Positions 47,905-49,586 of a DNA stretch of 64,000 nt are shown here, piece after piece. Both the position numbers and the translations under genes were made by a program. Source of the stretch: Candidatus Latescibacterota bacterium (GTDB taxonomy: Bacteria; Latescibacterota; UBA2968); assembly GCA_965207885.1 (NCBI GenBank), contig OZ242311.1, positions 2,848,001 to 2,912,000 of the forward strand, read 5' to 3'. Each line of letters starts with the position of its first letter. Position 1 is the stretch's first letter. The notes below the pieces were generated by a model. That model was not told the DNA's origin. It did no database searches and saw nothing but the letters and a program-made list of their open reading frames with translations.

Positions 47905-48336
47905 CTATAAATCAATAGGCTCAGGAGACTGAGCCTGGTGTGGGTGCTCTGACCCGGCGTAAATACGGACCTTTTTGATCATCTGTCGCCCCAATTTGTT
48001 GTGGGGCAACATACCCCGAATCGCGTGCTCAAGTACAAATGTGGGGCGCTTTTCCAGCGCGTCTTCCAGCGTTTGCTTCTTAAGCCCACTGGGATACCCA
48101 CTATAGCTCGTATAAACCTTCTGCTGGGCTTTGTTATTGCCCTTCACCTGTATTTTTTCGGCATTTATAATAACTACGTGATCCCCCGTATCAACATGGG
48201 GGGTATAAAAAGGCTTGTGTTTGCCGCGCAAAATTCGGGCAACGCCACTGGCAAATCGCCCCAGTATCTTGCCTTCTGCATCGGCGACATACCAGGTGTG
48301 TTCAACATCACCTTTTTTGGCACTCGGTGTCATCAT
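47905..48336 (-). CDS. rplM: 50S ribosomal protein L13
   Basis: [33 protein letters not shown]. Confidence 0.98.
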
Positions 48337-48411
48337 CGTCTCAATCGCGCCGCATGGTTACGGCGCAACTCTCTCACCTCCTCTCCTAATTTTGGAATCT
48401 TTGAGCCTCTG

Positions 48412-48439
48412 AAGGTACAGTATAATCCAATTTTGTCAA
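48412..48439 (-). promoter_or_regulatory. Putative sigma70 promoter of rplM-rpsI
   Basis: TTGACA-16-TACCTT on the minus strand. Confidence 0.45.
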
Positions 48440-48452
48440 GTTAGAAACCCAC

Positions 48453-48505
48453 AAAAAAGCGCCACACGTCGGGTGTCGGAAAACCGACCCATCTCCGTGC
48501 GGCGC
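48453..48505 (-). terminator. Long hairpin plus U6 (terminator-like)
   Basis: gcgccgcacg..gggtcgg-tttt-ccgacaccc..cgtgtggcgc-tttttt. Confidence 0.55.
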
Positions 48506-48707
48506 GTCGTCTGACGGAAGTTTCTGCCTCGCGATTGTCAAAAAATCGCCAATGTGGCAGATAACAAACCGCTCGATGGCTGTCTTGGATTACCAGGTGC
48601 GCTACCATTCGAGATGCTATTCCCGCTCCTGGCAGAGGCGCACCTAACGACAGCCACCTCCACTGGTCATTTCACTCATTCGACCACCTCCTTTCTTGTG
48701 TGGTTCC

Positions 48708-48736
48708 AATATAGCCCATGCAAAAGCGAAAGTCAA
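48708..48736 (-). promoter_or_regulatory. Sigma70-like promoter ahead of an unannotated structured RNA/sORF
   Basis: TTGACT-17-TATATT. Confidence 0.6.
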
Positions 48737-48755
48737 CCCTTGAAAGATGGAGGTA

Positions 48756-49556
48756 TTAGAAGCAGCACAGTGCAATCCCCGATGGGCGATCCAATCCCGC
48801 GGTAACGAGATCTTCAACATCTGAACCATCCAGGTTCGCACATTGAATTTTAGCCGTGCCATAGTTGTCATAGTCCCCCCAGTACATCTTCCCTTTGACG
48901 ACATCCAGAGCAATTCCCGACGGGCGATCCAATCCCGCGGTAACGAGATCTTCAACATCTGAACCATCCACGTCCGCACGTTGAATTTTAGACACGCCAG
49001 CACCCTTATAGTTCGTCCAGTACATCTTCCCTTCACCCACGTCTAAGGCAATCCCCAATGGCAGTAATTCGGTGAAAACGAGCGTTTCAACATAAGAGCC
49101 ATCCAGATTCGCACGTTGAATTTTGGTTAAGTCCGTCCAGTATATCTTACCCATGTCCAGATCCAGAACGATACCGTTGGGAATACTCATTTCGGTGAAA
49201 ACGAGCGTTTCGACATGAGAGCCATCCAGGTCCGCTCGTTGTACTTTGCACTCCACGGTCTCTCCCCAGGCCGCATCTGTCCAATATATTTTTCTTTTTT
49301 TTCCATGCACCGTCATTCCACCTGGAAGATATACATCGGTAACAACGAGATCTTCGACATCTGAACCATCCAGGTTTGCGCGCTGAATTTTGGACGTTCC
49401 AGCGTCCGTCCAGTACATCTTACCCTCGTCTCCATCCAGGGCGATGCTATTTGGAATACGCAATCCAGTAGTAACGAGATCTTTGACATCTGAACCGTCT
49501 GCGTTTGCACACTGAATTTTAGAAGTCCTCAAGTCTGTCCAATACATTTTTCTCAT
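48756..49556 (-). CDS. YWTD (LDL-receptor class B) six-repeat beta-propeller protein
   Basis: Six repeats K(M/I)YW(T/G)(D/N)..KIQRANLDGS.VE.LV..P.GIALD. Confidence 0.9.
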   Translation of the reverse strand: MRKMYWTDLRTSKIQCANADGSDVKDLVTTGLRIPNSIALDGDEGKMYWTDAGTSKIQRANLDGSDVEDLVVTDVYLPGGMTVHGKKRKIYWTDAAWGETVECKVQRADLDGSHVETLVFTEMSIPNGIVLDLDMGKIYWTDLTKIQRANLDGSYVETLVFTELLPLGIALDVGEGKMYWTNYKGAGVSKIQRADVDGSDVEDLVTAGLDRPSGIALDVVKGKMYWGDYDNYGTAKIQCANLDGSDVEDLVTAGLDRPSGIALCCF

Positions 49557-49586
49557 AGCGGCTCCAATCCAAAAATGCAAACGTGT

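Follow-up and report, generated by a model that had tools for sequence, protein, structure and literature searches.

What role could be served by a short bacterial RNA that carries, almost at its 5′ end, a 15-nucleotide (nt) complement of the 16S rRNA tail? The question is raised by a unit on the minus strand of a 64,000-nt stretch of a Candidatus Latescibacterota bacterium genome (GenBank assembly GCA_965207885.1, contig OZ242311.1, positions 2,848,001–2,912,000), which we refer to as the window. The unit occupies 48453–48736, and all feature coordinates given here are positions in the window. An earlier reading of the sequence alone (the original prediction) had described it as a stand-alone structured RNA of no known family that might bind or sequester 30S subunits, encode a peptide, or form part of a type I toxin–antitoxin or antisense system. 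Our analysis points to a stand-alone small RNA (sRNA) of ~249 nt that is probably a divergent Latescibacterota branch of the Ms_IGR-5 family built for ribosome engagement, with the engagement, not the peptide, being what matters.

Judged from its predicted promoter and terminator, 48453–48736 on the minus strand is one stand-alone transcription unit, as originally proposed, and contains no long open reading frame (ORF). The promoter (48708–48736) consists of a –35 element TTGACT (48736–48731), a 17-nt spacer and a –10 element TATATT (48713–48708), exactly where it had first been placed, and matches the consensus at 10 of 12 positions. A scan of the region lists three promoter-like sites in 1.4 kb compared with 1.5 ± 1.3 in shuffled sequences, so that the match alone is not significant. 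The same TTGACT-17-TATATT arrangement is found 5–7 nt 5′ of a conserved ACAC in all 39 loci of the order to which the window belongs (38 relatives and the window itself). The predicted 5′ end is A48701, seven bases past the –10 element, where the conserved ACACAAGAAAGGAGGTGGTC starts, and the 3′ end is predicted within the U-tract at 48453–48458, so that the whole RNA would span 48453–48701. The ~160–250 nt first suggested for the transcript would accordingly narrow to ~249 nt if A48701 is the start. The intrinsic terminator (48453–48505) combines a hairpin at 48459–48505, which has a conserved CGGAGAUG internal loop, with six U residues (48458–48453), in keeping with the larger of two hairpins named in the original prediction. 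A simple terminator scan did not list this hairpin, the stem of which is long and imperfect; a run of at least five T residues lies at equal distance, ~240–300 nt downstream, in 38 of the 39 loci of the order. The smaller hairpin with U6 near 48540, also put forward as a terminator, does not hold up: its T-run falls within an internal hairpin loop and is not conserved in relatives. Both promoter and terminator are thus predicted and conserved within the order, and contigs from RNA libraries, in which the ends are unmapped, cover the region.

The extended Shine–Dalgarno (SD) sequence, AGAAAGGAGGTGGTC, is located at 48682–48696. The single 16S gene of the organism, read from its own genome, ends in GGATCACCTCCTTTCTA, and AGAAAGGAGGTGGTC forms 15 consecutive pairs, one of them G–U, with the 3′-terminal 15 nt of the mature-type tail, which bears out the complementarity originally claimed. 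The 14-mer core GAAAGGAGGTGRTC occurs twice in the 6.2-Mb genome, once in the sRNA and once antisense to the 16S 3′ end, and its reversed control does not occur at all. The 9-mer AAGGAGGTG is present once in the window, where 0.30 copies are expected by chance, and at least once in 25 of 100 shuffles; given these shuffle and whole-genome counts, the short core is unremarkable and the full 14–15 nt is not. Approximately the first 10 nt of the extended SD are unpaired in a bulge, and the last five lie within a helix, P0, described below. A second SD-like block (GGAGGTGG / GGAGGUGG), found at 48661–48654 as first noted, is inside the small ORF, and its 3′ part contributes the 5′ strand of P1. A constant distance of 30 nt separates the two GGAGG motifs in each of the 38 relatives that carry both copies. 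A reading of four GGAG(G/A)UGG copies as repeated binding sites was set aside; the third copy in family f2 is the 3′ strand of a covarying helix.

A search of Rfam at its curated thresholds returns no match in the whole window, and ARAGORN finds no tRNA or tmRNA gene there. At a relaxed threshold, RF02471 (Ms_IGR-5) matches 48552–48701 on the minus strand over its entire model (1–184 of 184), with 37.3 bits and an E-value of 6.3e-7 in a 601-nt search. The remaining Rfam matches at E up to 10 all have E of at least 4; neither 6S nor any other catalogued RNA matches with a lower E-value, and no ribosomal-leader family, such as L13_leader, is among them. Searched against the whole genome, RF02471 gives a single match (E = 1.5e-6), and it also matches 39 of 41 related genomes, 38 of them once each and one (G039) twice. 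The second weak match in G039 (L025) is spurious, as it lacks both GGAGG motifs, and was dropped. None of 14 well-known control genomes, including that of Corynebacterium glutamicum, is matched, and one relative (G024) from the same genome family exceeds the curated gathering cut-off of 45 bits, with 46.6 bits. The conserved blocks and closing helix of RF02471 (5′ ACAC..GGAAGGAGGUGGUC, GAGGUGGCUG and AAUCC..CAGYCACC) are all present in the window sRNA. From its sequence, then, the window sRNA is a sub-threshold, full-length and genome-unique match to Ms_IGR-5 and would form a divergent Latescibacterota branch of that family. The original prediction could assign the RNA to no known family and had named an Rfam match as the finding that would speak against it; what emerges goes halfway, a sub-threshold match to a known but functionally uncharacterised family, with shared motifs, helices and mini-ORF.

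Since 2013, Ms_IGR-5 has been listed as an sRNA of actinobacteria. Like the M. smegmatis representative (IGR-5, ncMSMEG15794c), the window sRNA has the 5′ ACAC..GRAAGGAGGUGGUC block, the second GAGGUGGCUG, the closing helix with CAGYCACC and the AAUCC junction, along with a mini-ORF that follows the same start and stop logic, then a terminator, and one copy per genome. It differs in that its host belongs to the Latescibacterota and not the Actinomycetota; the family label is descriptive, not mechanistic. Its ORF has 11 codons with the block in the frame GGGC.. as opposed to EVA.., a spacer of 21 nt separates its two blocks, compared with 25–33 nt in actinobacterial loci, and an additional 3′ domain of 60 nt precedes the terminator. 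Within the Ms_IGR-5 family, the new elements predicted here are the other reading frame, the added 3′ domain and a conserved place beside the rplM gene cluster.

The two blocks also allow the RNA to be followed beyond the order. A motif-pair scan, using one genome per species and two conserved blocks 15–35 nt apart, returns at least 120 loci; since both blocks were demanded, their invariance among the matches listed is by construction. Among these matches, 105 are assigned by record title to the Actinomycetota and 15 to others: four to Blastocatellia, three to Planctomycetota, two to Latescibacterota, and one each to Heliobacteriaceae, Syntrophobacter, ‘Deltaproteobacteria’, Eisenbacteria, Zixibacteria and Sumerlaeota. 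The motif pair is therefore present in the Actinomycetota and at least eight other phylum-level groups, with the note that labels resting on single metagenome-assembled genomes are possibly binning errors, and that those of the Latescibacterota, Blastocatellia and Planctomycetota rest on several genomes each. A purpose-built covariance model finds a match in 82 of 151 sampled Latescibacterota genomes, including 29 of 29 and 18 of 19 in the two families of the window’s order, and shorter, weaker matches elsewhere. The gene is present in one copy per genome.

In nine divergent copies from other Latescibacterota families the SD is retained along with a frame that stays open for 12 or 15 codons, but the helices differ. 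In one such family (L173–L175, L180 and L181), a divergent sRNA at ~200–330 of the oriented loci has a 12-codon frame encoding MSSQSTTGRWIT and a second block, GGGAGGUGGAUCACCUGA, that holds a literal copy of the 16S tail core and pairs with CAGGUGAUCGCCACCU; rplM is not adjacent. In another (L177 and L178), a 15-codon cysteine-rich frame encodes MDSYSCAGDCWGCDA, and the P1 helix has one mismatch. Within the window’s own family, one locus (L179, genome G021; 42.6 bits with our model) has an intact 5′ half (MTDMTSGGGCS), an unrelated 3′ half and no rplM downstream, and is possibly a broken or rearranged copy. One congener also contains a second weak match of our model (G016:C1:4613920–4613972; 28.3 bits over 53 nt).

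The mini-ORF of the window sRNA (48644–48679, minus strand) consists of 11 codons and a stop and encodes MSEMTSGGGCR, as first described; its ATG lies 2 nt past the extended SD and its TAG stop at 48646–48644. A start codon is found 2–9 nt past GGTC in 158 of 159 loci (ATG in 84, TTG in 48, GTG in 17 and CTG in 9), and the frames of 11–15 codons in these 158 loci end 3–6 nt past the second block, at TAG in 142, TAA in 11 and TGA in 5. A canonical start (ATG, GTG or TTG) is in frame in 115 of 124 distinct sequences, compared with 24 and 6 for the other two frames, which hold stops in 83 and 121 of the 124. The nine CTG loci are from Acidimicrobiia (e.g., L053, L060 and L145), in which the sole in-frame start is a CTG within the conserved CCAACTG; either the start is non-canonical or this lineage uses the frame differently.

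The peptide itself is a different matter. Between the blocks, the spacer can be as short as 19 nt or as long as 33 nt; the start offset shifts in step, which keeps the frame. In four arrangements of 11 codons the spacer and stop offset sum to 25 (19+6, 20+5, 21+4 and 22+3); this constant sum means that the block slides through all three frames at a fixed ORF length. The block is translated as ..EVA.. in the Actinomycetota and several other groups, as ..GGGC.. in this order and the Eisenbacteria record, and as ..RWL.. in the Planctomycetota. Across the order, the peptide reads M-x-x-x-T-S-G-G-[GD]-C-[RS] with codons 2–4 freely variable, and in three loci (L002, L016 and L020) the G-to-A change in the block that turns Gly into Asp has a C-to-U counterpart in the P1 3′ strand. 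Because the frame is kept while the block is read in three frames, we conclude that passage of the ribosome through the mini-ORF is probably under selection and that the amino-acid sequence is not.

The RNA is also predicted to be highly structured. The whole 256-nt stretch folds with –111.8 kcal/mol (z = –6.2), which none of 200 shuffles equals; z is –2.9 for the 5′ core by itself (3 of 200 shuffles) and –4.8 for the 3′ part, comprising the extra domain and the terminator (0 of 200). In a MAFFT alignment of 33 diverse copies, RNAalifold found only five pairs, the variable middle being misaligned. Three helices were therefore written by hand after a check of the columns, a covariance model was built from them and the sequences were re-aligned; given 100 sources (99 of 158 homologous loci and the window), the model yielded exactly one full-length match in each. 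On re-alignment, P0, P1 and P2 together are 89.8% paired, and when a fourth helix, Pa, is added 87.4% of cells are paired, compared with 17–50% when the partners are slid by 1–3 columns. Thirteen of 25 pairs changed on both sides and the covariation score was reached by none of 500 shuffles, a control that overstates the support, as the sequences are kin and not independent. The alignment was also fitted to the structure. Covariation thus supports the four helices, including the outer of the two nested stems named in the original prediction, which covaries across phyla; both stems are present in the minimum-free-energy (MFE) fold.

The outermost helix, Pa, was spotted from the complementarity of the conserved ACAC to the bases before the second block, both sides of which shift together between phyla. 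By homology, its 5′ strand in the window is CAC (48698–48700), pairing with GUG (48661–48663), and its three positions covary in the 100-sequence alignment (AU60/GC13/CG9/UA2, CG72/GC7/AU5 and GC61/AU13/CG5). Hairpin P0 (48664–48686) pairs UGGUC (48682–48686) with GACCA (48664–48668) in the MFE fold and holds the ATG (48677–48679) in its loop; its pairs are kept in 94–100 of the 100 sequences. Helix P1 has 10 base pairs (bp) between GGUGGCUGUC (48649–48658) and the pyrimidine-rich, anti-SD-like GACAGCCAUC (48575–48584), with 93.7% of cells paired and covarying positions CG32/UG32/UA18/GC8, CG58/UA8/GC6 and GC41/GU38/AU7; like Pa, it covaries in both the Actinomycetota and the other phyla. Helix P2, with 8 bp in the MFE fold, joins UUAGGUGCGC (48638–48647), which includes the stop codon, to GCGCACCUGG (48593–48602); it is 78% paired, and all six of its pairs in the alignment changed on both sides. 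The distal hairpin or hairpins, P3 (48603–48637 in the MFE fold), differ widely in length and sequence between lineages, with matches spanning 72–205 nt. Between the 3′ strands of P2 and P1 lies an unpaired junction, UAAUCCAA (48585–48592), which is AAUCC-like across phyla. The extra 3′ domain (48511–48572), found in this order, contains the T-run near 48540 and adopts a three-tier stem with an inner hairpin in the consensus fold; compensating changes are seen between families f1 and f2 (e.g., CUGCC/GGCAG and CCGUC/GAUGG).

Taken together, the helices would form a rod in which Pa closes the domain, ~10 nt of the SD protrude as a one-sided bulge and P1 nearly abuts Pa. In this model P0 would hide the last 4–5 nt of the SD and offer the start codon in its loop, and P2 would stack on P1 over a one-sided junction containing the conserved AAUCC. 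A candidate 6-bp pairing, CAUCUC/GAGAUG, that would join a hairpin loop to the ORF as a pseudoknot was spotted by eye only.

Part of the window is present in 13 runs registered as RNA. Contigs of four metatranscriptome runs from three studies all cover the sRNA, and one of them (X1) spans rplM, the sRNA and the upstream gene; such contigs cannot give strand, ends or level, and libraries of this kind may contain DNA. In another run (X4), the summed depth reaches 15,660 at 48556–48596 compared with 166 over rplM, which would suggest high abundance. These values were not used, as depth over contigs is no basis for ranking genes and may be a total over several organisms, and the missing RNA cover upstream of 48679 in the same run was likewise left unused as evidence.

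More is available for homologues in Actinomycetota. Ms_IGR-5 homologues are ribosome-protected in ribosome profiling (Ribo-seq) of M. abscessus and M. smegmatis (PMC4974804), the family was validated by RNA sequencing in S. lividans (PMC8079986), and Ms_IGR-5 is listed as an sRNA transcription unit in S. avermitilis (PMC8780764). In M. smegmatis, IGR-5 lies between MSMEG_5794 and MSMEG_5795, starts with an A and is capped with nicotinamide adenine dinucleotide (NAD), and is described as ‘validated but yet uncharacterized’ (bioRxiv 10.1101/2021.12.14.472595); it was re-detected as ncMSMEG15794c (PMC10454040). The accessible passages of the literature on Ms_IGR-5, IGR-5 or RF02471 assign it no function, and literature searches for the sequence motif, and for sRNA names in the M. 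tuberculosis style at the equivalent intergenic region, gave nothing relevant.

How might these parts work together? In the predicted layout, the 5′ end pairs ~40 nt downstream through Pa, and the bulge between Pa and P0 shows ~10 nt of the 15-nt complement. The 11-codon frame crosses the 3′ strands of P0 and Pa and then the 5′ strand of P1, and the UAG lies in the 5′ strand of P2. Engagement of the 30S subunit would be the most natural reading of this conserved anatomy. We propose that a 30S subunit would dock on the bulged SD and that pairing would then grow into P0, up to 15 bp. Extension of the duplex into P0 would expose the start codon and allow translation to start, and to translate all 11 codons the ribosome would have to open P0, Pa and P1 as well as the base of P2. 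Once UAG occupies the A site, the second GGAGGUGG would sit 6–9 nt upstream of the last sense codon, facing the anti-SD of the ribosome; because this is the usual distance between an SD and the P site, the terminating ribosome could be held at the stop. The opening would leave the AAUCC junction unpaired together with the pyrimidine-rich P1 3′ strand, so the RNA could alternate between a closed rod and a ribosome-opened form. Candidate outputs are the stability of the RNA itself, pairing of the freed strand or junction in trans, and a read-out of free-ribosome or release-factor activity.

A bolder version, for which the odds appear rather low, is that Ms_IGR-5 and its relatives constitute an ancient multi-phylum switch operated by the ribosome. 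The mini-ORF would probe translational capacity, whether as free 30S subunits with an intact anti-SD or as release factor 1 (RF1) at UAG, and the opened form would act as the signal, wired here to rplM-rpsI-rpsB-tsf-frr.

Several points weigh against the proposed ribosome engagement or the family assignment, in addition to the limits on the motif scan, the covariation control and the RNA-library contigs given above. The Rfam score of 37.3 bits is below the curated cut-off, and the 94.8 bits obtained with our own model are circular, as the model was seeded with the window sRNA. Nine loci would require a CTG start, and one of the 159 has no frame. The conserved stop position is possibly a by-product of P2 pairing (YUAG with CUGG); by the same token, the preference for UAG (142 of 158) may be a link to RF1 or may merely reflect this pairing. 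P0 and proximal P1 show no compensatory changes, as they overlap invariant sequence, and because they are invariant they are uninformative either way, and Pa is just 3 bp (CAC/GUG) in this order and invariant there. The ends of the transcript, its engagement with ribosomes and its structure are predictions for this organism, and the switch and its output are what we infer from them.

An unlikely alternative is that the RNA is an ordinary base-pairing sRNA in which the SD and mini-ORF serve only to load a protective ribosome, as a 5′ stabiliser, while a loop or the AAUCC junction regulates. STAB-SD elements, the SD-like 5′ mRNA stabilisers known from Bacillus, lie near the 5′ end, pair with the 16S 3′ tail and recruit the small subunit, and the window sRNA, with its SD within 6 nt of the predicted 5′ end, shares both this location and the extensive pairing. 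The junction and several loops are also conserved and unpaired, as would suit a regulatory role. STAB-SD elements, however, are found without a start codon or ORF and on long mRNAs, whereas the window RNA adds a conserved start, frame and stop and ends after ~250 nt. A stabiliser would need none of these three features, the distal loops vary freely in both length and sequence, and no target complementarity came to light, no search aimed at it having been made.

Also unlikely, to a slightly greater degree, is a cis-acting leader or attenuator of rplM-rpsI, in which translation of the mini-ORF would determine whether the terminator at 48453–48505 forms and hence the amount of mRNA for L13 and S9. 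The sRNA lies directly upstream of a ribosomal-protein cluster, as the original prediction had stated. The neighbouring separate unit (47905–48440, minus strand) comprises a promoter-like TTGACA box (48434–48439), a leader and rplM (L13; ATG at 48336), after which come rpsI, rpsB, tsf and frr. Of the 41 loci of the order, 39 have rplM downstream on the same strand, 334–554 nt past the sRNA 5′ end (the exceptions being L022, at a contig end, and L027), and this holds across two families in which L13 is only ~70% identical. One RNA contig (X1) bridges the sRNA and rplM, and by reading of the sequence the terminator loop GGAGAUG could form 5 bp with CCAUC of the P1 3′ strand.

This antiterminator of 5 bp would have to compete with the 10-bp P1, however, and in the lineages read outside the order the terminator comes directly after P1 or within ~10 nt of it, with no overlap, which makes a simple attenuator unlikely. 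Between the terminator and rplM, the TTGACA box and the leader are both conserved, and as the spacer before the box grows by 60–160 nt (L005, L023 and L030–L032) the box stays with rplM. None of the nine divergent copies fetched from other Latescibacterota families has rplM within ~1 kb downstream. In the Actinomycetota, the neighbours are a convergent FABP/nitrobindin-like (Rv0813c-like) gene at 29 loci, YgfZ-like at 20, Fur-family at 16 and PabC-like at 9, as compared with rplM beside the window sRNA; these names are readings of the sequences without database assignment, made with a third-position GC filter that replaced longest-ORF calls, which gave wrong-strand artefacts in high-GC genomes. 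This neighbourhood, in which the next downstream gene is convergent at many loci, agrees with the location of IGR-5 between MSMEG_5794 and MSMEG_5795. Neither the Actinomycetota nor the other phyla have neighbours related to ribosomal proteins, and in non-actinobacterial phyla outside the order the neighbours are unrelated to one another. We therefore read the sRNA and rplM as two adjacent units, predicted to be kept together, and not as one operon.

Leader-peptide attenuators of the erm, cat and trp type likewise have a short frame from which the ribosome melts a downstream helix, and as in these systems the downstream helix of the window RNA holds a second SD-like sequence. Unlike them, the window RNA has no second ORF after that block, its helices and terminator can form side by side, and neither a downstream gene nor regulatory codons are conserved across lineages.

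That the RNA is an untranslated decoy sequestering 30S subunits through the 15-nt pairing is improbable. The complementarity does extend far beyond the needs of initiation and is unique in the genome, but the conserved start, frame and stop favour translation and there is a single gene copy per genome. Of the original proposal that 30S subunits are bound or sequestered, engagement hence fits the conserved anatomy, and pure sequestration is less likely than translation.

A functional micropeptide or type I toxin can be put aside as very improbable, for although the order keeps a strong SD, an ATG start and a frame of 11 codons as M-x-x-x-T-S-G-G-G-C-[RS], the conserved residues coincide with P0 and P1 nucleotides, which are read in other frames in other lineages, the Gly-to-Asp change is compensated on the other RNA strand with codons 2–4 free, and the 11-residue peptide is polar, not membrane-like and differs between lineages, with neither an antitoxin nor an antisense RNA seen and no antisense promoter–terminator pair in the promoter and terminator scan of the region. 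Dual-function sRNAs such as SgrS/SgrT, RNAIII/hld and SR1/SR1P are also both structured and translated, with peptides that are active and conserved; in the RNA described here, the act of translation seems to be conserved and the peptide is not.

The ribosome-engaging sRNA that we favour indicates that the Ms_IGR-5 design extends well beyond the Actinomycetota, to Latescibacterota, Planctomycetota, Blastocatellia and others, and that its core may be a ribosome-docking site of maximal extent, presented by a structured bulge. If this is correct, the translating ribosome itself would be the conserved ‘ligand’ of the RNA, which would make it an unusual regulator. The family ranks among the more intriguing unexplained bacterial sRNAs. 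For annotation, the current threshold and name of RF02471 miss whole branches of the family.

The leader of rplM (48337–48440, minus strand) has features of its own. An SD-like GAGAGGAGGTGAG lies at 48371–48383, ~35 nt before the rplM ATG, with a hairpin (48347–48366) in between, and the TGA that closes an 11-codon frame starting at TTG overlaps this ATG. In six congeners the hairpin is absent and the SD directly precedes the rplM ATG, and the sister family has a different hairpin in the same place. The leader has no Rfam match and may serve as an operator for L13/S9 or as a split ribosome-binding site. On the other side of the sRNA, an RNA-library contig from run X1 skips 160 nt at 48745–48906, which fits a strain that is short of one repeat in the YWTD-repeat gene at 48756–49580.

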